In this document: positions 2,579 to 35,340 of the stretch, piece after piece | How positions within the stretch are numbered: position 1 is the first letter of the stretch | How the letters are laid out: every line of letters begins with the position of its first letter | Source of the DNA: Escherichia coli | GTDB taxonomy: Bacteria; Pseudomonadota; Gammaproteobacteria; Enterobacterales; Enterobacteriaceae | Strand: one strand, 5' to 3' | Length of the DNA: 64,000 nucleotides | Assembly (NCBI RefSeq): GCF_002854065.1 | Contig: NZ_CP024147.1 | Notes under the pieces: generated by a model | Databases searched by the model: none | The model's input: only the letters and a program-made list of their open reading frames with translations | Told to the model about the DNA's origin: nothing | Made by a program: the position numbers and the translations under genes

Positions 2579-3121
2579 ATGATTATCTATTTACACGGTT
2601 TTGACTCTAACAGTCCGGGTAACCACGAGAAAGTCTTACAATTGCAGTTTATTGACCCGGATGTACGCTTGATAAGCTACAGTACGCGGCATCCGAAACA
2701 TGATATGCAGCATCTGCTTAAAGAAGTGGACAAAATGTTGCAACTGAACGTTGACGAGCGTCCGCTAATTTGCGGCGTTGGCCTGGGCGGATACTGGGCT
2801 GAACGGATTGGTTTTCTTTGCGACATCCGCCAGGTGATCTTCAACCCTAATTTGTTCCCTTATGAGAACATGGAAGGCAAGATTGATCGCCCGGAAGAGT
2901 ATGCCGATATTGCCACTAAGTGTGTGACCAACTTCCGTGAGAAGAATCGCGATCGTTGCCTGGTGATTTTGTCGCGTAATGATGAAGCGCTTAACAGCCA
3001 GCGGACATCTGAAGAGTTGCATCATTATTACGAGATTGTCTGGGACGAAGAGCAGACGCACAAATTCAAGAATATCTCCCCGCATTTACAGCGCATTAAA
3101 GCGTTCAAAACCCTCGGGTAA
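2579..3121 (+). CDS. ycfP: UPF0227 family esterase-like protein YcfP
   Basis: 180-aa ORF from internal ATG ([11 protein letters not shown]...), alpha/beta-hydrolase-like HGF motif. Confidence 0.85.
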
Positions 3122-3129
3122 ATGCCCTC

Positions 3130-3260
3130 GTCGCATCAGGTAACCTTGCCGGTACCTGATGCGCTCCGAATTCTGTAAGTCGGATAAGGCGTTTACGCCG
3201 CATCCGACAGTCGAGCATCAATGCCTGATGCGCCTCTTATCAGGCCTACCGAACGCCCTG
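3130..3260. repeat. REP/BIME-type palindromic repeat cluster
   Basis: Tandem imperfect palindromes of the gcctgatgcgc...gcatccg type characteristic of E. coli REP elements, in ycfP-ndh intergenic region. Confidence 0.6.
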
Positions 3261-3521
3261 CATACACCCCTCACTCTATATCACTCTCACAAATTCGCTC
3301 AAATAATAAACAATAAACTCTGTTTTTTGATCTCACCCGGTAAAGTCGCCTATCTTTTCAGCAACAAAACTTGATTAACATCAATTTTGGTATGACCAAT
3401 GCACCATTCATGTTATTCTCAATAGCGAAGAACATTTTTCATTGCTGTAACCTGTTGTTAATTAAGAGCTATGTTAATAACCATTAATTAACAATTGGTT
3501 AATAAATTTAAGGGGGTCACG

Positions 3522-4826
3522 TTGACTACGCCATTGAAAAAAATTGTGATTGTCGGCGGCGGTGCTGGTGGGCTGGAAATGGCAACACAGCTGGGGCATA
3601 AGCTGGGACGCAAGAAAAAAGCCAAAATTACGCTGGTCGATCGTAACCACAGCCACCTGTGGAAACCGCTGCTGCACGAAGTGGCGACTGGCTCGCTTGA
3701 TGAAGGCGTCGATGCGTTGAGCTATCTGGCCCATGCGCGCAATCATGGTTTCCAGTTCCAGCTGGGTTCCGTCATTGATATTGATCGTGAAGCGAAAACA
3801 ATCACTATTGCAGAACTGCGCGATGAGAAAGGTGAACTGCTGGTTCCGGAACGTAAAATCGCCTATGACACCCTGGTAATGGCGCTGGGTAGCACCTCTA
3901 ACGATTTCAATACGCCAGGTGTCAAAGAGAACTGCATTTTCCTCGATAACCCGCACCAGGCGCGTCGCTTCCACCAGGAGATGCTGAATTTGTTCCTGAA
4001 ATACTCCGCCAACCTGGGCGCGAATGGCAAAGTGAACATTGCGATTGTCGGCGGCGGCGCGACGGGTGTAGAACTCTCCGCTGAACTGCACAACGCGGTC
4101 AAGCAACTGCACAGCTACGGTTACAAAGGCCTGACCAACGAAGCCCTGAACGTAACGCTGGTAGAAGCGGGTGAACGTATTTTGCCTGCATTACCGCCAC
4201 GTATCTCTGCTGCGGCCCACAACGAGCTAACGAAACTTGGCGTTCGCGTGCTGACGCAAACCATGGTCACCAGTGCTGATGAAGGCGGCCTGCACACTAA
4301 AGATGGTGAATATATTGAGGCTGATCTGATGGTATGGGCAGCCGGGATCAAAGCGCCAGACTTCCTGAAAGATATCGGTGGTCTTGAAACTAACCGTATC
4401 AACCAGCTGGTGGTGGAACCGACGCTGCAAACCACCCGCGATCCAGATATTTACGCTATTGGCGACTGCGCGTCATGCCCGCGTCCGGAAGGGGGCTTTG
4501 TTCCGCCGCGTGCTCAGGCTGCACACCAGATGGCGACTTGCGCAATGAACAACATTCTGGCGCAGATGAACGGTAAGCCGCTGAAAAATTATCAGTATAA
4601 AGATCATGGTTCACTGGTATCGCTGTCGAACTTCTCCACCGTTGGTAGCCTGATGGGTAACCTGACGCGCGGCTCAATGATGATTGAAGGACGAATTGCG
4701 CGCTTTGTATATATCTCGCTATACCGAATGCATCAGATTGCGCTGCATGGTTACTTTAAAACCGGATTAATGATGCTGGTGGGGAGTATTAACCGCGTTA
4801 TCCGTCCGCGTTTGAAGTTGCATTAA
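3522..4826 (+). CDS. ndh: type II NADH:quinone oxidoreductase (NDH-2)
   Basis: 434-aa product [19 protein letters not shown]... with two GxGxxG FAD/NAD folds; non-ATG start in frame. Confidence 0.93.
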
Positions 4827-4834
4827 TCGACGTA

Positions 4835-4930
4835 CACTGGCGGATGTGGCATAAACGCCTCATCCGCCCTGGACAAATGGTACGAACGGTAGGCCTGATA
4901 AGACGCGTTAAGCGTCGCATCAGGCATTCC
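4835..4930. repeat. REP-type palindromic repeat
   Basis: gcctgataagacgcg...gcgtcgcatcaggc REP consensus downstream of ndh. Confidence 0.55.
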
Positions 4931-5052
4931 TTCAGACTCCTCCGAATCCTTAAGTATTTCCAGCCATTCCCGCGCTTTTCATCTTCTGTCTGATAGCTGC
5001 TTTTCTCCTTCGCTTGCATGATTGGCATAACTGCAAAGAAGGAGGTATTCCC

Positions 5053-5592
5053 GTGAATAAATCAATGTTGGCGGGTATCGGGATTGGTGTCGCAGCTGCG
5101 CTTGGCGTAGCGGCAGTGGCCAGTCTGAACGTGTTTGAACGTGGCCCGCAATACGCTCAGGTTGTTTCTGCAACCCCAATCAAGGAAACGGTTAAAACAC
5201 CGCGTCAGGAGTGTCGCAACGTCACAGTGACCCATCGTCGACCGGTGCAGGATGAAAATCGCATTACCGGGTCGGTGCTCGGCGCTGTTGCTGGCGGCGT
5301 GATAGGGCATCAGTTTGGTGGTGGTCGTGGTAAAGATGTCGCCACTGTTGTGGGGGCGCTGGGTGGTGGATATGCCGGTAACCAGATCCAGGGCTCTCTC
5401 CAGGAAAGCGATACTTACACGACTACGCAACAGCGTTGTAAAACGGTGTATGACAAGTCAGAAAAAATGCTCGGTTATGATGTGACCTATAAGATTGGCG
5501 ATCAGCAGGGCAAAATCCGCATGGACCGCGATCCGGGTACGCAGATCCCGCTAGATAGTAACGGGCAACTGATTTTGAATAACAAAGTATAA
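5053..5592 (+). CDS. ycfJ: glycine-zipper outer membrane protein YcfJ
   Basis: 179-aa product MNKSMLAGIGIGVAAALG... (GTG start), Gly-rich zipper segments. Confidence 0.85.
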   Translation: MNKSMLAGIGIGVAAALGVAAVASLNVFERGPQYAQVVSATPIKETVKTPRQECRNVTVTHRRPVQDENRITGSVLGAVAGGVIGHQFGGGRGKDVATVVGALGGGYAGNQIQGSLQESDTYTTTQQRCKTVYDKSEKMLGYDVTYKIGDQQGKIRMDRDPGTQIPLDSNGQLILNNKV

Positions 5593-5615
5593 CAAGGCTG
5601 TACTCTGCAATTTGG

Positions 5616-5648
5616 CCCCTCATTCGCTCAGGCTGAGGGGCTTTTTTT
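5616..5648 (+). terminator. rho-independent terminator after ycfJ
   Basis: cccctcattcgctcaggctgagggg hairpin followed by T7 run. Confidence 0.65.
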
Positions 5649-5653
5649 GCGAC

Positions 5654-6286
5654 TTATTTCACCAGTTCGGGCCATAAACGCAAAGTCGTTCCGGCAATCT
5701 GCATCAGTTTTTCCAGCGATGCACCTTCGCGTGCGCTGATCGACATCCCCTGAATAATACAATTAAGGAATTCTGCCAGATGTGTCACGTCACAGTGGGT
5801 CGGGATTTCCCCGCGCGCTTGTCGTTGACATAAAAACTGCTGCAAAGTGCGCTCTTGCATCGCATGGCGTGATTTCAACGTATTGGCGATATCTCCTGAA
5901 TCTGGGGAGAGGGTGGTGCAGTTGTTGATCATGAAGCAGCCTGCCGGGGTGTCTTTGCTGGTAAAGCAGTTGGCGATGGCAGCAAAATAGTCAGCCAGCG
6001 CAGACTCCACGCTTTTCTCTTCACAAAACAGTTGTGCTTCATGCTTAGCGGCAAAACGATCGATATAGCGGTCGAGAACGGCACGAAATAACCCCTCTTT
6101 GTTGGTAAATTCCGCGTATAGCGTGGGCGCTTTGGCTCCGGTCGCTTCGACGAGGTCCGCAAGAGAAGTCGCTTCATAACCGTGTTGCCAGAACAATTTC
6201 ATGGCCTTATCAAGCGCGGCATCTCTGTCGAACACTTTTGGGCGGCCACGGCTTTTTTTTACACATTGTGTTGAGTCAGTTGCCAT
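5654..6286 (-). CDS. comR: TetR-family transcriptional repressor ComR (YcfQ)
   Basis: 210-aa product with N-terminal TetR HTH (RGRPKVFDRDAALDKAMKLFWQHGYEATSL), divergent to bhsA. Confidence 0.85.
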   Translation of the reverse strand: MATDSTQCVKKSRGRPKVFDRDAALDKAMKLFWQHGYEATSLADLVEATGAKAPTLYAEFTNKEGLFRAVLDRYIDRFAAKHEAQLFCEEKSVESALADYFAAIANCFTSKDTPAGCFMINNCTTLSPDSGDIANTLKSRHAMQERTLQQFLCQRQARGEIPTHCDVTHLAEFLNCIIQGMSISAREGASLEKLMQIAGTTLRLWPELVK

Positions 6287-6526
6287 GATGCCGTTGTACC
6301 TGGTGACTGTGAATGAAAGGTTATTATAAAAATAATCACCTCCGTTCACCAGTCCAGATCCCATAAAAATAATTGCTTTCTATTTAACTGAAATTTAAAG
6401 ATTTTTAAATTAATTAATGATTGTTATAAAAAATATCTTGTATGTGATCCAGATCACATCTATCATTTAGTTATCGATCGTTAAGTAATTGCTTGCGACG
6501 TCATTCATCTGCATAAGGCCACTATT

Positions 6527-6784
6527 ATGAAAAACGTAAAAACCCTCATCGCTGCGGCGATTTTAAGCTCCATGTCATTTGCCAGCTTTGCGGCTGTCGA
6601 AGTTCAGTCAACGCCAGAAGGCCAACAAAAAGTCGGTACAATCAGTGCTAACGCGGGGACAAATCTGGGATCGCTGGAAGAGCAGCTGGCGCAAAAAGCG
6701 GATGAGATGGGCGCAAAATCTTTCCGTATTACTTCTGTAACCGGTCCGAATACCCTCCATGGAACAGCAGTAATTTATAAATAA
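6527..6784 (+). CDS. bhsA: multiple stress resistance outer membrane protein BhsA (YcfR)
   Basis: 85-aa secreted YhcN/DUF1471-family protein, signal peptide ...SFASFA. Confidence 0.88.
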   Translation: MKNVKTLIAAAILSSMSFASFAAVEVQSTPEGQQKVGTISANAGTNLGSLEEQLAQKADEMGAKSFRITSVTGPNTLHGTAVIYK

Positions 6785-6823
6785 GCATTAACCCTCATTA
6801 ATGCCTGCTACTGCTGATTTTTT

Positions 6824-6857
6824 CCCCGCGACATGCCGTGTAGCGGGGATTTTTTTT
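6824..6857 (+). terminator. rho-independent terminator after bhsA
   Basis: ccccgcgacatgccgtgtagcgggg hairpin followed by T9 run. Confidence 0.65.
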
Positions 6858-6866
6858 ATCCAGGAT

Positions 6867-7829
6867 TTACAGAGTTTGTGGGCTCACTTGATGACGGCGG
6901 ACATCCACCGGCATCCCGGAACGGACATCCATCACAAGTTGCATCACTTCAGCGTCAGTTTGTGCTGCATCTTTAAATGATTGCATTGCGCTATTCAGCG
7001 TAATTGGCAGCAGCTGCGGATCGTCATCAATCTTCTCTGACAGCGGCTGATGTACTTCAACCAGACGTGCACCGTTTGGTTCGGCAGAGACTTTTATCGG
7101 AGTGTTGATGATATTCACTTTGGTGCCTGGGGTGACCTGGCTAAAGAGTGTTTTGATATCGTCATCCCGCAGACGAATACAGCCAGAACTTACCCGCATG
7201 CCAATGCCGAAATCGGCGTTCGTACCGTGAAGCAAATAAACGCCGCCATAGGCCGCCAGACGAATCGCATGATGGCCCATTGGATTATCCGGTCCAGCCG
7301 GCACTACCGCAGGCAACTCAATTCCTTGTGCCTTATATCGCGCGCGAATGTTTGCCGTTGGCGTCCAGGTTGGGTTTGCACGCTTGTCAGAAACGGTGGT
7401 CACCATTGTCGGTGTCAGCGTGTCACCACCTAACTGACCAATACCTATTGGATACACGGTTACCGAATTTTTACCCGGCGGGTAGTAATAGAGACGAAGC
7501 TCCGCAATGTTGATCACAATGCCTTCGCGCGGCGCGTCTGGAAGTAGGGTTTGCAACGGGATCGTTAACACGCTGCCCGCGCGCGGTACGTAAGGATCAA
7601 CGCCGGGGTTAGCCTGTAATAGAGCGAGAAAGCCGACGTTATATTTTTTGGCGATGGCTTCCAGAGAACCACCGTCATTTTCCACCACATGAAATTTGTT
7701 TTCGCCAACCAGACGACTGCCCGCTGGCGGCAGCGGCCAGGTGTTGGCTTTTGCCGGTAGCGCCAGCGCCACGGCAGCGGCGAACGTAAAAAACGTTAGC
7801 CAGCGAGAAAAACGCGTTTTGATCATCAC
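6867..7829 (-). CDS. ldtC: L,D-transpeptidase LdtC (YcfS)
   Basis: 320-aa ORF with signal peptide, LysM-like region and YkuD catalytic motif (HGT...SSGCIRL). Confidence 0.88.
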   Translation of the reverse strand: MMIKTRFSRWLTFFTFAAAVALALPAKANTWPLPPAGSRLVGENKFHVVENDGGSLEAIAKKYNVGFLALLQANPGVDPYVPRAGSVLTIPLQTLLPDAPREGIVINIAELRLYYYPPGKNSVTVYPIGIGQLGGDTLTPTMVTTVSDKRANPTWTPTANIRARYKAQGIELPAVVPAGPDNPMGHHAIRLAAYGGVYLLHGTNADFGIGMRVSSGCIRLRDDDIKTLFSQVTPGTKVNIINTPIKVSAEPNGARLVEVHQPLSEKIDDDPQLLPITLNSAMQSFKDAAQTDAEVMQLVMDVRSGMPVDVRRHQVSPQTL

Positions 7830-7972
7830 CAAAAATCCATAATAAATATAAGGTTATTGTAATAAACAGATAAGCCTGAATTATGGATGGTGACAGTGTC
7901 GGATAGTGCAGGGAAGTGCAAAGAATTTGTAAATGTTGCAGATGGGGGCGCAGAAACGCCCCCGATTTACCA

Positions 7973-10900
7973 TTAAGCGATCGCGTTTTCTTCCAGTTCA
8001 CGCATAAACTGGCGTACCCATTCGATACGCGTTTTCCGCTCACTCAAATCCTGAATAAATTTCAGGCGCGTCGGACCATCAAGGCGGTAATGCTGCGGCT
8101 GTTTTTGCAGCAAACCAATCAACCAGGCCGGATTAACGTGATTCTTCTCGGCAAATTCGATCACCCCACCTTTCTCATTACCTTCCAGCTTCCTGATCCC
8201 CAGTTTCTGCGCTTGCTGGCGCAGACGGGCAATATCCAGCAGGGTACGCGCCGGATCCGGCAGCAGGCCGAAGCGATCGATAAGCTCGACTTTGATCTCT
8301 TCCAGTTCGTTTTCCGTTTTGGCGCTGGCAATACGTTTGTAGAACGACAGACGCGTGTTCACGTCAGGGATGAAATCATCTGGCAATAGCGACGGCATCC
8401 GCAGCTCGACTTCTGTTTGCTGGCTGGTGAGATCTTCCAGCGACGGCTCGCGTCCGGCTTTCAGTGCATCGACGGCGTTTTCCAGCAACTCCATATACAG
8501 CGAGAAACCGATGGTTTCCATCGAGCCACTTTGTTCTTCGCCAAGCAGTTCACCCGCGCCGCGAATCTCCAGATCGTGCGTTGCCAGCGCAAAACCTGCC
8601 CCGAGATCTTCCAGCGAGGCAATCGCTTCAAGACGTTTTTGTGCATCGGTAGTCATCGCTTTTGGATGCGGTGTCAGCAACCATGCATATGCCTGATGAT
8701 GCGAACGTCCGACGCGACCGCGTAACTGGTGCAGCTGCGCCAGACCGAAGTGATCCGCGCGTTCAATGATAATGGTGTTGGCTGTCGGGATGTCGATCCC
8801 GGTTTCGATAATGGTTGTACAAACCAGCACGTTGAAACGTTGATGATGGAAATCATTCATCACCCGTTCCAGTTCGCGCTCGCGCATCTGCCCGTGACCG
8901 ATGGCGATCCGCGCTTCTGGCACCAGTTCTGCCAGCCGTTCGGCGGCTTTCTGAATGTTTTCCACATCATTGTAGAGATAATAAACCTGTCCTCCGCGCA
9001 AAATTTCACGCAGGATCGCCTCCCGGACCACCAGGCTGTCATACTCACGGACAAAGGTTTTAACTGCCAGACGACGGGCGGGCGGCGTGGCGATAATCGA
9101 CAGGTCACGCATTCCGCTCATTGCCATATTCAGCGTACGTGGGATCGGCGTTGCAGTAAGCGTCAGAATATCCACGTTCGCGCGCATCGCTTTAATGCGC
9201 TCTTTATGACGCACCCCGAAGCGGTGTTCTTCATCGACAATCAGCAGGCCTAAATCTTTAAACTTGACGTCACTTTGCAGCAGTTTGTGCGTACCGATCA
9301 GAATATCGATTTTCCCTTCCGCCACTTCCGCAAGGATTTGCGTCTGCTCTTTGGCGCTGCGGAAACGGGAGATCATTTCGATACGTACCGGCCAGTTGGC
9401 GAAACGGTCGCGGAAGTTGTCGTAATGCTGCTGCGCGAGAAGGGTGGTAGGCACCAGCACCGCCACCTGCTTGTGGTTATCTACTGCCAGGAAAGCGGCG
9501 CGCATCGCCACTTCTGTTTTACCAAAGCCAACATCGCCGCACACCAGACGATCCATTGCCAGCGGCTGACACATGTCGCTAAGTACCGCATTAATGGCCT
9601 GCGCCTGATCCGGCGTGGTTTCAAACGGGAAGCTGTCGCAGAACAACTGATACTGCTCACGATCGTGTTTAAACGCGAAGCCCTCTTTGGCGGCGCGTTG
9701 CGCGTAGATATCCAGCAATTCCGCCGCCACATCACGCACTTTTTCCGCCGCTTTCTGCCGCGCGCGTGACCACGCATCGCCGCCAAGTTTATGCAGCGGG
9801 GCGTTTTCTTCCGCGCCACCTGCGTAACGGCTAATCAGATGCAGTGACGACACCGGAACATACAGTTTGGCGTCGTTGGCATAGGTGAGCATCAGGTACT
9901 CGCCAGTAATGCCGCCAGCTTCCAGCGTGGTCATTCCGGCATAGCGACCGACGCCGTGCTCCAGATGGACCACCGGCTGGCCAATATGCAGCTCCGCGAG
10001 GTTGCGGATCAGTGTATCGGGGTTGATGGTGCGGCGAGAATCCTGACGACGGCGGGCAACACGTTCACCGAGCAGATCGCTTTTGCAAATCAGCGCCAGG
10101 TTACGCACCTTATCGACAAAACCATGTTCGGCAGCGCCAATCATCAGATAACGCCCACGGTCGCTGGCTTCATCAAGACGCATAATGCGTTGCGGAGCAA
10201 TTTTAATTCGTGCGAGCAGTTCACCCAGCGCTTCACGGCGACCTTCACTTTCTACCGAGAACACCACCGGACCGTCGAAAGTCTCGAGGAACTTACGCAG
10301 CGCATCCAGCGGCGCTTTTTGTTGTGCCTGAACGGCCAGGTCTGGCAGTTTCTGGAAACCTAAATTGGCATTCGCGGCTTTTGTCGGTAAATGTTCAGTT
10401 TTTAGCTGCACTCGGGGCCAGTTTTTCAGCTCTGAGAAGAGCTCGTCCACCCGCAGCCAGAGCGATTGTGGTGGCAACAGTGGGCGCATCGGATCGACGC
10501 CGCGATTCTCAAAACGCGCCAGCGTGTCAGCCTGGAAACGTTCGGCACTGTTTTCCAGATCGCCAGTATTCACCAGCAAGGTATTGGCAGGGAAATAACT
10601 GAACAGCGGCGGCAGTGGTTCGCTGAAGAACAATGGCTGCCAGTACTCGATCCCGGCAGGTAATGTGCCTTTACTCACTTGCTGGTAAATATGTTCCGGA
10701 TCGCGCTTCACTTCGAAGGTATCGCGCCACTGGCTGCGGAACAGTTCAATTGCCGCTTTATCGGTCGGAAATTCGTGCGCGGGCAGCAGATTGATCGCTT
10801 CTACTTCCTCCAGCGTGCGCTGGCTGTCGACGTCAAACACCCGCAGGCTGTCGATTTCATCATCAAAGAAATCAAGACGATAAGGCAGCTCACTCCCCAT

Positions 10901-31747: not shown

Positions 31748-32398
31748 TTAATCTGTCACTTCTCGCCATTCGCCATTAGCAAGATTATCCAAAGAGTAAT
31801 CACCCATCGCATAACGAATCAGTCGCAGCGTGGGGAAACCAACATGGGCGGTCATGCGGCGCACCTGGCGATTACGTCCTTCAAATAAGGTGATCTTCAG
31901 CCAGCTGGTGGGAATACTTTTGCGTTCACGAATTGGTGGATTCCGCGGCCATAACCACGCAGGTTCGTCAACCAGCTCCGCGCCGGCGGGCAGGGTAGGG
32001 CCATCATTTAAGGTTACGCCATTGCGCAAGGCTTCAAGTGCGTCTTGTGTGGGAATACCTTCCACCTGCACATAATAGATTTTTCCGGTGCGTTTACCCG
32101 GCTGGGTTAAACGCGCCTGCAACGCGCCGTTATTGGTCAGCACCAGTAACCCTTCGCTATCGCGGTCAAGACGACCTGCTGCATAAACGCCCTGAACCGG
32201 GATGAATTCTTTTAATGCTTTGCGTCCGGCTTCATCGGTGAACTGCGGAAGAACATCGTAGGGTTTATTGAACAGGATCACACGCGTGGGCTGGTTTTCA
32301 GGTTTACGCTTAGTGGAGTGTTGCGAGTTTAGTCGACTAACCTGTTTTTTTCTAAAAGAAGATTTAGAATCGCTAAAGTATTTCATGGTAAATTCCAA
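31748..32398 (-). CDS. rluE: 23S rRNA pseudouridine synthase RluE
   Basis: 216-aa RsuA-family pseudouridine synthase (catalytic region [18 protein letters not shown]). Confidence 0.87.
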
Positions 32399-32718
32399 AT
32401 AGAGCTATACGCAGAGGGTAGCACAGTGTCGGATTGCATTGGACTTTGAAGGTACTCGTTAGAGGTTCAGGGTTCAGGCTCTTCAGCGCGGTTTCATCAA
32501 TACCTGGGTTAGTGAGCAGCGGTTGTGTGGCTGCATGGTGATAAATATGGCCCAATGAACACATTTTACATTGATGAATTGAATAAATATTGGTATGAAA
32601 AATAGTGTTTCTGTATTACTGATGGGTGACAGCACTTCACTGTTCAAGTTCAGGATGATGCTTTACCACTACCATCATCAGCAGTAATAAGAGGGGCATC
32701 GCAGCCTTCTTTTTTATT

Positions 32719-33054
32719 CTACTGATACAGCCATTTTCCCGCTTCTGCTGATTCCGCAAACATCCGTACAGTTAACGGTAAACGTGTTGTTTCTACCTCT
32801 TCCCGCTTGAGCTTGAACCATCGTTGAAGCAATGGTGCAGACTCCCACGGAAGGTACAAAGACCAGTCCAGATTATCCAGGTTAATCCCAAACCTCTCTT
32901 TGTATTTCCGTATAGCGTCCTCTAAATCATCTCGTGGATAGTCGAACAAATCAGAGTCCAGTTCTAACGGAATTTCCTTCCCGTGGTCATCCTGATAACC
33001 TGGAATCTCATCACGGAACAGTGCTAAAACTTCGTCTGTGATTGTTGTTGCCAT
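32719..33054 (-). CDS. hypothetical acidic 111-aa protein (family unassigned), translationally coupled to upstream ORF
   Basis: ATG overlaps the stop of the upstream ORF as TAATG; D/E-rich product MATTITDEVLALFRDEIPGYQDDHGKEIPLELDSDL...; an alternative GTG start at 33069 is possible; not a K-12 gene I recognise at this locus. Confidence 0.5.
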   Translation of the reverse strand: MATTITDEVLALFRDEIPGYQDDHGKEIPLELDSDLFDYPRDDLEDAIRKYKERFGINLDNLDWSLYLPWESAPLLQRWFKLKREEVETTRLPLTVRMFAESAEAGKWLYQ

Positions 33055-33503
33055 TAGAAGGAAGTCCACTTAATACGGTCTTGAGGTTTGGCAATCAGAT
33101 TGTATTTTTCCTGGGTACGAGTCGAAACCCTGTAAAGACTCATCGACAGTGAAACCCAACCAATCCACGGGACCCAACGAGCGATAATTGCAGCAAGCTT
33201 ATTAGATTTCTGCATCCTTACACCCACTGGTGTATGAACAGAAATACCAAAAGGCATGCGTGCATCTCTCATCAGTATACGCGCATACTTTGAGACAACA
33301 CTTGTTCCCAGGGTTGCCCCTTGCGGCTTCGCTCTTGTACCCAGCCAAGGTTGACCAGATAAGATTGCTGCACCTGATACCGAATCAATCCCCAATTCCT
33401 TACAGAATTCTTCAAGGAATATGACGTTGAGTAGTTCTATTTTGGACAGGTTCGGGTGTCCTCTATAGAAATATGTTCCATTGCGTTCTTCGGTAGTATC
33501 CAT
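33054..33503 (-). CDS. hypothetical 149-aa protein with C-proximal hydrophobic segment (family unassigned)
   Basis: ATG preceded by GGAG at a 9-nt spacing; hydrophobic stretch LAAIIARWVPWIGWVSLSMSLY; AGA/AGG Arg codons (atypical for E. coli core genes). Confidence 0.5.
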   Translation of the reverse strand: MDTTEERNGTYFYRGHPNLSKIELLNVIFLEEFCKELGIDSVSGAAILSGQPWLGTRAKPQGATLGTSVVSKYARILMRDARMPFGISVHTPVGVRMQKSNKLAAIIARWVPWIGWVSLSMSLYRVSTRTQEKYNLIAKPQDRIKWTSF

Positions 33504-33536
33504 TTTTCAACACTCCATTGTTATATAGTGTTTCTG

Positions 33537-33629
33537 TTACTTGAAGTTGATTTCTTCGGTTGCAGCAGATGCAGAACTAGAACCAGTAAAGGCAACGAGT
33601 GTCACAGCTATCAGTGCAAAGCGTTTCAT
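33537..33629 (-). CDS. putative 30-aa small ORF with signal-peptide-like N-terminus
   Basis: ATG preceded by GAGG at a 5-nt spacing; product MKRFALIAVTLVAFTGSSSASAATEEINFK; lies 33 nt upstream of the 149-aa ORF on the same strand. Confidence 0.3.
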   Translation of the reverse strand: MKRFALIAVTLVAFTGSSSASAATEEINFK

Positions 33630-34089
33630 GTGAACCTCAAAAAGGGTGGATGCCATAATTTACTCGTTGCTTGTCGCTTCAACCATGACTTTTGATAATT
33701 TTCCCAATAGTGCTCAAAGTGAGTTAGTCGCTGAATCGAGTAATGTCAAATTTTGACCAAATAGCACCCTGTTAGTTATCTCTGGTGGTTTTTTTATTGC
33801 TTAAAATCTGGTGTAACTAATTGATATTTAATACTTTATTTGAAGGTCGGGAAAATACTGTCTTTGGTCTAAAAGAAGTTTTTTGCATGGTATTTTCAGA
33901 GATTATGAATTGCCGCATTATAGCCTAATAACGCGCATCTTTCATGACGGCAAACAATAGGGTAGTATTGACAAGCCAATTACAAATCATTAACAAAAAA
34001 TTGCTCTAAAGCATCCGTATCGCAGGACGCAAACGCATATGCAACGTGGTGGCAGACGAGCAAACCAGTAGCGCTCGAAGGAGAGGTGA

Positions 34090-35340
34090 ATGGAAAGTAA
34101 AGTAGTTGTTCCGGCACAAGGCAAGAAGATCACCCTGCAAAACGGCAAACTCAACGTTCCTGAAAATCCGATTATCCCTTACATTGAAGGTGATGGAATC
34201 GGTGTAGATGTAACCCCAGCCATGCTGAAAGTGGTCGACGCTGCAGTCGAGAAAGCCTATAAAGGTGAGCGTAAAATCTCCTGGATGGAAATTTACACCG
34301 GTGAAAAATCCACACAGGTTTATGGTCAGGACGTCTGGTTGCCTGCTGAAACTCTTGATCTGATTCGTGAATATCGCGTTGCTATTAAAGGCCCGCTGAC
34401 CACTCCGGTTGGTGGCGGTATTCGTTCTCTCAACGTTGCCCTGCGCCAGGAACTGGATCTCTACATCTGCCTGCGTCCGGTACGTTACTATCAGGGCACT
34501 CCAAGCCCGGTTAAACACCCTGAACTGACCGATATGGTTATCTTCCGTGAAAACTCGGAAGACATTTATGCGGGTATCGAATGGAAAGCTGACTCTGCCG
34601 ACGCCGAGAAAGTGATTAAATTCCTGCGTGAAGAGATGGGCGTGAAGAAAATTCGCTTCCCGGAACATTGCGGTATCGGTATTAAGCCGTGTTCTGAAGA
34701 AGGCACCAAACGTCTGGTTCGTGCAGCGATCGAATACGCAATTGCTAACGATCGTGACTCTGTGACCCTGGTGCACAAAGGCAACATCATGAAGTTCACC
34801 GAAGGCGCGTTTAAAGACTGGGGCTACCAGCTGGCGCGTGAAGAATTTGGCGGTGAACTGATCGACGGCGGCCCGTGGCTGAAAGTTAAAAACCCGAATA
34901 CCGGCAAAGAGATCGTCATTAAAGACGTGATTGCTGATGCATTCCTGCAACAGATCCTGCTGCGTCCGGCTGAATATGATGTTATCGCCTGTATGAACCT
35001 GAACGGTGACTACATTTCTGACGCCCTGGCAGCGCAGGTTGGCGGTATCGGTATCGCCCCTGGTGCAAACATCGGTGACGAATGCGCCCTGTTTGAAGCC
35101 ACCCACGGTACTGCGCCGAAATATGCCGGTCAGGACAAAGTAAACCCAGGCTCTATTATACTCTCTGCTGAGATGATGTTACGCCACATGGGTTGGACCG
35201 AAGCCGCAGACCTGATTGTTAAAGGTATGGAAGGCGCAATCAATGCGAAGACCGTAACCTATGACTTCGAACGTTTGATGGAAGGCGCTAAACTGCTGAA
35301 ATGTTCAGAGTTTGGTGATGCGATCATCAAGAATATGTAA
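34090..35340 (+). CDS. icd: isocitrate dehydrogenase (NADP)
   Basis: 416-aa product [38 protein letters not shown]...; preceded by GGAGAGG RBS. Confidence 0.97.

Follow-up and report, generated by a model that had tools for sequence, protein, structure and literature searches.

Rhs C-terminal toxins with RhsI immunity proteins, together with orphan cassettes of the same type, were reportedly described by Koskiniemi et al. in 2013 and Zhang et al. in 2012. Tse2/Tsi2 of Pseudomonas aeruginosa comprises an Hcp-dependent small cargo effector and a cytoplasmic immunity protein, and the size limit for cargo in the Hcp lumen is roughly 20 kDa or less. Small effectors travel inside the Hcp tube (PMC8262886), and Ssp6 of Serratia marcescens, a type VI effector that forms ion-selective pores and whose gene lies apart from the type VI cluster, exerts its greatest toxicity from the periplasm and is paired with Sip6, a protein of 67 amino acids (aa) encoded by a 204-bp open reading frame (ORF) and having two transmembrane helices (PMC6889166). 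The present analysis concerns two overlapping genes in a 64,000-nucleotide (nt) stretch of Escherichia coli contig NZ_CP024147.1 (assembly GCF_002854065.1), referred to below as the window, which encode a 149-aa protein, here called the putative toxin, and a 111-aa protein, here called the putative immunity protein. With a probability of roughly three in four, the two genes are an orphan cassette for an effector and its immunity protein, from an uncharacterised type VI/Rhs polymorphic-toxin family, and the site of toxin action would be the cytoplasm or the inner face of the inner membrane. The principal features of the pair are as follows.

33054-33503, minus strand: toxin gene (149 aa, STM2901 family/DUF8209), with an ATG start at 33503 and a TAA stop
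32719-33054, minus strand: immunity gene (111 aa, DUF1493), identified by direct reading and by its match to PF07377
33052-33056, minus strand: TAATG stop/start overlap, with base 33054 common to the toxin stop and the immunity ATG
33513-33516, minus strand: GGAG ribosome-binding site, separated from the toxin ATG by a 9-nt spacer

Family assignments were made using profile searches. The toxin matched NCBIfam model NF045926 ('STM2901 family') over its full length at 157 bits (cut-off 110), the match spanning residues 8-142 and model positions 1-140 of 140, and near-identical relatives carry a precomputed match to Pfam PF26636, which is DUF8209. The immunity protein matched Pfam PF07377 (DUF1493) with an expectation value (E) of 1.3e-29 over residues 4-110 (model positions 3-107 of 108), and an NCBIfam scan of this protein gave no match. 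A preliminary description of the locus, prepared from the DNA sequence, had left both proteins in an unknown family and had proposed a Pfam profile search; both families can now be named (STM2901/PF26636/DUF8209 and PF07377/DUF1493), although neither is characterised. Neither protein matched the PADLOC models, both matched only families of unknown function in PHROGs, single-sequence searches of the PDB returned only noise for both, and an Rfam scan of positions 32000-34200 gave no match.

Relatives of the pair were collected in two ways. A HMMER search of 1.84 billion representative proteins returned 175 relatives of the toxin, and a scan of one genome per species yielded 80 Enterobacterales loci; the latter were retrieved by the N-terminal peptide MDT[TVI]EE, and every count given for them below samples one subfamily only. 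About two dozen of the 175 relatives are proteins of 220-612 aa that carry DUF8209 at their extreme C-terminus. An Rhs/YD core-end signature (...DPxGL) was found directly upstream of DUF8209 in three of these sequences (P0166, P0196, and P0198), reading ...YYVRARWYDPKTRRFMVEDPIGL...NDPINLSDPDGL in P0198 and ...YQARYYSPALGRFLSRDPL...VDPLGL in P0196, while P0166 carries precomputed TEN_YD-shell and RHS_repeat matches, the second of which was recovered in our own scan. Among the AFDB50 relatives are several called 'RHS repeat-associated core domain-containing protein', one of them a Flavobacterium Rhs of 1,128 aa. Recurrence of DUF8209 as a C-terminal tip past the Rhs demarcation motif is a feature of the family, the E. 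coli gene itself being free-standing. Because it recurs as a variable Rhs tip, DUF8209 is interpreted as a toxin domain by the logic of polymorphic toxins. The position of DUF8209 after the DPxGL motif in other bacteria resembles that of Rhs-CT toxins, whereas the E. coli toxin has its own ATG and ribosome-binding site with no upstream Rhs fragment, and DUF8209 and DUF1493 are not among the characterised Rhs toxin and immunity families.

The preliminary description had also proposed that co-occurrence of the two genes be examined across genomes, and the linkage proved close. In 79 of the 80 Enterobacterales loci the toxin gene abuts, on its own strand and at its 3' end, an ORF that matches the DUF1493 profile, and a DUF1493 gene lies directly downstream in all of three distant stand-alone toxin homologues that do not carry MDT[TVI]EE (loci L091-L097). 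At a further locus (L004), a fragment with an Rhs core end terminates in DUF8209, its sole precomputed Pfam match (there is no Rhs match), and is followed after 2 nt by a DUF1493 gene and then by a second DUF1493 gene; these surroundings look like an array of orphan toxin/immunity cassettes. A 432-aa protein tipped with DUF8209 and having a signal-peptide-like N-terminus also precedes a DUF1493 gene (L006). Toxin and immunity identities are correlated across loci (Spearman 0.55), immunity identity falling to about 30% where toxin identity is 30-60%. Tandem cassettes or extra immunity-only copies were found at L018, L039, L042, L046, and L072, two DUF1493 genes follow one toxin gene at L092-L094, and Erwinia typographi has up to four separate loci (L020, L044, L048, and L071), a tandem and multi-locus pattern that is typical of arms-race gene families. 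As in Rhs-CT/RhsI modules, the immunity gene is directly downstream, toxin and immunity protein diversify jointly, and orphan cassettes and arrays occur (L004, L039, and L042). Exceptions to a downstream, co-diversifying immunity gene are L005, L007, and L063.

Recurrent neighbours were identified by clustering the flanking ORFs of all 80 loci. Only one further recurrent family was found, Hcp/TssD, which is present at 45 of the 80 loci (TIGR03344, 132-190 bits, cut-off 59). In most of these 45 loci hcp either lies on the toxin strand and terminates about 10 nt ahead of the toxin ATG, or lies on either strand and begins 5-85 nt past the immunity stop. An independent set (L092-L094) shows this arrangement too, T6SS_HCP (PF05638) being followed by DUF8209 and then by two DUF1493 genes. 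Adjacency of DUF8209 to an orphan hcp extends to at least one genome unrelated to Enterobacterales. Since the remaining neighbours are unrelated (an ATP-binding cassette exporter, OlsF, BioH, and fimbrial genes), these loci are small orphan hcp-effector-immunity islands and not parts of main type VI clusters. In its size of about 17 kDa, in having homologues encoded beside hcp, and in its acidic, soluble, cytoplasmic immunity protein, which would imply cytoplasmic action, the pair resembles Tse2/Tsi2; it differs from effectors of that type in that searches by sequence and by fold linked it to no characterised effector and in that the E. coli locus has no hcp. No link to the pair came from the Proteus hcp-vgrG operons or from the paper on Hcp cargo. 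At positions 6540-7628 of L045, in Enterobacter hormaechei, a gene beside one hcp-linked cassette has partial matches to anti-phage AAA ATPase models (MADS3 and the retron Eco8 effector, both below cut-off), and that cassette may be in a defence or accessory island.

The coding status of the two ORFs was assessed by direct reading and by comparison with homologues. The preliminary description had reported a 149-aa ORF with an ATG preceded by GGAG at a 9-nt spacing, and these features were confirmed (GGAG at 33516-33513, ATG at 33503), as were the TAATG at 33052-33056 with the single common base 33054, a hydrophobic stretch of roughly 22 residues (LAAIIARWVPWIGWVSLSMSLY, residues 103-124), rare codons in the toxin ORF (three AGA and two AGG), and the strongly acidic character of the 111-aa partner (24 D+E against 14 K+R, isoelectric point 4.5). 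An alternative immunity start, a GTG at 33069, would give a protein of 116 aa; the RefSeq annotation has the 111-aa form. To judge from its arrangement, the TAATG overlap should couple translation of the two genes, and a stop/start overlap of 1 or 7 nt was found in 77 of 79 homologous toxin-immunity pairs. The ratio of nonsynonymous to synonymous substitution rates (dN/dS) against other genera was 0.03-0.18 for both genes, indicating purifying selection; for the toxin against Escherichia sp. E1V33 it was 0.45, based on few substitutions. Because the ORFs have curated family matches and low dN/dS and recur in the same abutting layout in 79 of the 80 loci, both are judged to be genuine genes and not chance ORFs.

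From this genomic context we infer the following mechanism. The 149-aa basic protein would be the free-standing form of a DUF8209 warhead, carried inside the type VI Hcp tube and injected into neighbouring bacteria; its mass of 16.8 kDa is within the Hcp lumen limit. The 111-aa DUF1493 protein, produced by coupled translation from the same mRNA, would bind and neutralise the toxin in the producer cytoplasm and would also guard against the same toxin arriving from kin. The preliminary description had proposed signal-peptide and transmembrane predictions; neither a signal peptide nor a hydrophobic segment was found in the immunity protein, which is predicted to be soluble and cytoplasmic. On these grounds the expected site of toxin action is the cytoplasm or the cytoplasmic face of the inner membrane. 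The E. coli copy might use an Hcp encoded elsewhere, or it might be kept mainly for immunity.

The properties of the toxin itself were examined using composition, conservation, and structure prediction. The protein is basic (isoelectric point 10.0) and has two partly hydrophobic segments. In its AlphaFold2 model, long helices at residues 21-50 and 103-137 flank a small beta/loop region. Residues S71 and P112 are invariant across the family, and L24, G38, G50, T67, S68, R109, and G115 are nearly so; conservation is concentrated in the loop at the centre and in the second of the long helices, where it defines the elements TRxKxxGATxGTSxxSK (loop) and RxxPxxGW (helix). The N-terminus, MDTTEELNGTYFY, is also strongly conserved among the retrieved pairs; this conservation is partly an artefact because the loci were retrieved by an N-terminal peptide. 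Structural searches gave no specific fold match and no characterised structural relative, Foldseek against AFDB50 returning family members only. The toxin profile matched 32 residues (765-796) of chain Q in PDB entry 8vjh, a phage tape-measure protein (RLIPIVGWALLAYDIGAIMY and TRLIPIVGWALLAYDIGAIMYDQSQTF; E 8e-4), and this segment aligns with toxin residues of approximately 108-139, which contain the conserved RxxPxxGWxxLAYD helix. The match is suggestive, on thin evidence, of a membrane-active helix.

Disruption of the membrane or of the proton motive force by the two long, partly hydrophobic helices is the proposal for the toxin activity toward which we tentatively lean, at somewhat less than an even chance. 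A candidate alternative is that the toxin binds a target or acts as an enzyme in the cytoplasm by means of the TRxKxxGATxGTSxxSK loop and the RxxPxxGW helix. Ssp6/Sip6 offers a comparison for the first proposal, in that a small enterobacterial effector gene is overlapped by its immunity gene by a few nucleotides and in that the partly hydrophobic helices of the DUF8209 protein could act on the membrane. Identity with Ssp6/Sip6 was rejected on immunity architecture, since the immunity protein here is a soluble 111-aa protein with a carrier-protein fold instead of a membrane protein like Sip6. Set against the features of pore-formers (Ssp6, Tse4, and Tse5-CT), the hydrophobic window of the toxin is sub-threshold (1.37) and its immunity protein is soluble and not located in the membrane; the proposal of a pore is weakened because the immunity protein is soluble.

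The preliminary description had noted a DSDL motif in the acidic partner, reminiscent of small proteins of the acyl carrier protein (ACP) kind, and this idea was only partly borne out. The motif is present (residues 33-36), and the AlphaFold2 model of the immunity protein (mean predicted local distance difference test score, pLDDT, 87; predicted template modelling score, pTM, 0.78) shows a four-helix, carrier-protein-like fold. Its residue Ser34, however, is variable among homologues (S, F, Y, T, or D), and the conserved phosphopantetheine serine (DSL at the start of helix II) is absent from the immunity protein and its homologues. The best PDB matches of the immunity profile were ACPs, at a non-significant E of about 0.7, and a Pfam scan of the protein returned DUF1493 only, with no match to PP-binding. 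Helix II of the immunity protein begins at residue 41, and hhalign places ACP Ser37 opposite R41 in an alignment that is itself not significant; the equivalent of R41 in DUF1493 homologues is G, A, or T (PGDD, TGDD, or DADD). The immunity protein thus resembles acyl and peptidyl carrier proteins (PP-binding) in its acidic surface and predicted four-helix fold, and differs from them in having R or G for the helix II serine and in an additional C-terminal region of about 30 residues. Judged on the model, the fold resemblance appears real, yet because the carrier serine is missing the protein should not be able to serve as a carrier protein. The last 11 or so immunity residues, ESAKAGKWLYD (window positions 32719-32760), are about 89% conserved against 34-59% elsewhere in the protein (79 pairs, L009-L087), and an LT..(M/D)L..A...G.W pattern is retained in the distant DUF1493 homologues of L004 and L006; this conserved C-terminus may be a common functional surface or a recombination handle.

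It is also conceivable, as a long shot, that DUF1493 is an ACP mimic, a decoy without the serine, and that the toxin kills through ACP or an ACP-dependent step. The toxin would then engage ACP or the synthesis of fatty acids, lipid A, or phospholipids, with the TRxKxxGATxGTSxxSK loop recognising the acidic helix II surface or the phosphopantetheine phosphate. If true, this would represent a new target class for interbacterial toxins and an instance of immunity by substrate mimicry.

Several results weigh against an effector-immunity cassette as set out above or against particular parts of it. The Kyte-Doolittle maximum of the toxin (window of 19 residues) is 1.37 and falls short of the value of about 1.6 that is usually required of a transmembrane segment; across the family the median of these maxima is 1.45, and 32 of 79 homologues reach 1.6. 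The AlphaFold2 model of the toxin is of moderate confidence (pLDDT 77, pTM 0.55), and toxins that target membranes do not typically have a soluble immunity protein, a point against the proposal of a pore. The restriction of the 80 loci to one subfamily belongs here, as do two distant, Rhs-linked loci (L005 and L007) at which the downstream genes have no detectable similarity to DUF1493, although loss of such similarity would be usual for deep branches of toxin families. A literature search on STM2901, DUF1493, PF07377, DUF8209, and PF26636 found no functional study, the mentions of STM2901 concerning cloning or transcription only. In none of 5,426 complete E. coli genomes is hcp contiguous with the pair, the E. 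coli islet that contains the pair being without hcp. Apart from these points, no type VI genes are present in the region of PapRG-06-5 that is equivalent to the window (its 1.6-kb islet region is identical to that of the window), and the islet flanks showed no DNA homology to the hcp-bearing loci of other genera by blastn, no search for hcp remnants having been made at the protein level.

Three other explanations of the pair were considered. According to one of them, the pair is an intracellular toxin-antitoxin or abortive-infection module directed against phages, in which the toxin is never exported, is freed when the cell is infected by phage or stressed, and then kills the producer or halts its growth, the module spreading by selfish addiction. 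Such a module would account for the joint movement of two coupled genes to plasmids and to many chromosomal sites that are unrelated to each other, for the 35 of 80 loci and all E. coli copies in which hcp is missing, for the PHROG matches of both proteins, and for the pair that Erwinia phage EtG carries at an accessory-gene site. It would leave unexplained the C-terminal fusion to Rhs/YD-repeat proteins and the more-than-chance adjacency to hcp; moreover, no PADLOC model was matched, the partner has a carrier-protein-like fold instead of that of a DNA-binding antitoxin, and the pair is present in only 3 of 50,697 phage records, one of which is host DNA. We consider it improbable. Classical type II toxin-antitoxin systems share with the pair a coupled two-gene operon with a basic toxin and an acidic partner, and were rejected in that no DNA-binding antitoxin and no PADLOC match was found; here, in addition, the toxin gene comes first and DUF8209 is fused to export scaffolds in other bacteria. 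The preliminary description had offered toxin-immunity, toxin-antitoxin-like, and phage-moron readings side by side. The first is favoured by the Rhs fusion, by hcp at 45 of the 80 loci, and by the downstream DUF1493 gene, while the classical form of the second does not hold and a phage moron at this locus was rejected as host DNA.

The E. coli cassette could otherwise be a decaying relic, kept for an immunity gene that is effective against the DUF8209 toxins of other Enterobacterales, with its own toxin unsecreted and being lost. The absence of linked hcp in E. coli genomes would fit this, as would the truncated E. coli toxin clusters P0047 (111 aa, 35 members), P0058 (99 aa, 10 members), P0051, and P0053, the 132-aa homologue of strain IAI39, and the limitation of the islet to 6.8% of genomes. 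In the window, however, the toxin ORF is full length with its ribosome-binding site and coupling intact, most E. coli copies are likewise intact (the intact cluster has 274 members), and the toxin dN/dS against Escherichia sp. E1V33 is below 1, on few substitutions. Distance from hcp or vgrG is common among type VI effectors, Ssp6 being an example that is unlinked to any type VI gene, and we regard decay of this kind as less likely still than an intracellular module. Least probable of all, in our estimation, is a cooperative, non-toxic pair with a housekeeping or accessory role, composed of a carrier-protein-like adaptor or chaperone and a small membrane-associated client. The ACP-like predicted fold of the second protein and the label 'membrane protein' given to the first in some databases are in keeping with such a pair. 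The carrier serine is absent, however, the patchy, multi-copy, plasmid- and phage-borne spread with tandem arrays is unlike that of a housekeeping function, and the Rhs C-terminal fusion and the hcp adjacency are hallmarks of an exported toxin.

If the effector-immunity assignment is confirmed, DUF8209/DUF1493 would be a new, widespread family of type VI/Rhs warfare, two long-standing domains of unknown function would acquire a role, and the strain-variable islet beside icd in about 7% of E. coli would be accounted for. A small toxin without a known fold relative, together with an immunity protein built on an ACP scaffold, would also invite structural and mechanistic study. Systems of this kind are already well understood, so that the catalogue is extended and no new category is created; what is new here is that the family is unstudied and that the ACP fold of its immunity protein is unusual.

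The gene order in the window is phoQP-purB-hflD-mnmA-nudJ-rluE, the pair, and icd-iraM, and the pair occupies an islet that was delimited by comparison with an empty site. The islet and the other features of the surrounding region are as follows.

32366-33867, no strand: islet of 1,502 bp, from alignment with the empty site in APEC O1
32351-32365, no strand: left 15-bp direct repeat TCTAAAAGAAGATTT, within the 5' end of rluE
33868-33882, no strand: right 15-bp direct repeat TCTAAAAGAAGTTTT, within the stranded original rluE start (MQKTSFR...)
33917-33945, minus strand: promoter-like site ATGAAA-17-TATAAT, a consensus match only, upstream of the stranded rluE start and directed toward the toxin gene
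33537-33656, minus strand: small ORF of 30-39 aa, signal-peptide-like in sequence (MKRFALIAVTLVAFTGSSSASAATEEINFK), located between the toxin gene and the stranded rluE start

The G+C content of the islet is 42%, compared with 48-53% in the flanks, and the 15-bp repeat is single-copy in the empty site of APEC O1. The islet is present in 370 of the 5,426 complete E. coli genomes (6.8%), and homology to loci of other genera is confined to the two-gene cassette (32712-33510). The islet interrupts rluE within its first codons; the former start of this gene (MQKTSFR...) is left stranded at approximately 33868-33890, and rluE now opens with islet-derived codons (32351-32398). E. coli with the islet therefore differ from E. 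coli without it in the N-terminus of RluE and probably also in its transcription. Ahead of rluE no terminator was detected on the minus strand, and co-transcription of toxin, immunity gene, and rluE from the site at 33917-33945 is possible on the basis of the consensus match; a promoter role for this site is tentative because shuffled sequence would be expected to contain at least as many promoter-like sites as this region does. The small ORF at 33537-33656 was considered as a third gene and rejected; other genera lack it, Escherichia sp. E1V33 has it in split form, and it is probably not a gene.

The family was found in E. coli, Salmonella (STM2901, beside Salmonella pathogenicity island 1), Yersinia pestis, Klebsiella, Enterobacter, and Serratia, and DUF8209 occurs in addition at the distant stand-alone and Rhs-linked loci. 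Homologues are present on 153 plasmid records. Among the three phage records, ON470584.1 ('Escherichia phage vB_EcoM-689R6', L088, positions 3169-9064) runs past the integrase into icd, the pair, rluE, nudJ, mnmA, and hflD; because this record of an icd-integrated prophage includes host chromosome, phage-database matches to these genes are boundary artefacts. The P2-like temperate Erwinia phage EtG (MF276773.2, L089, positions 3001-3761) carries a pair of the DUF8209/DUF1493 type, EtG_24 and EtG_23, flanked by the tail sheath gene and the genes for tail-fibre assembly; in P2-like phages this position is a recognised hotspot for accessory and defence genes.

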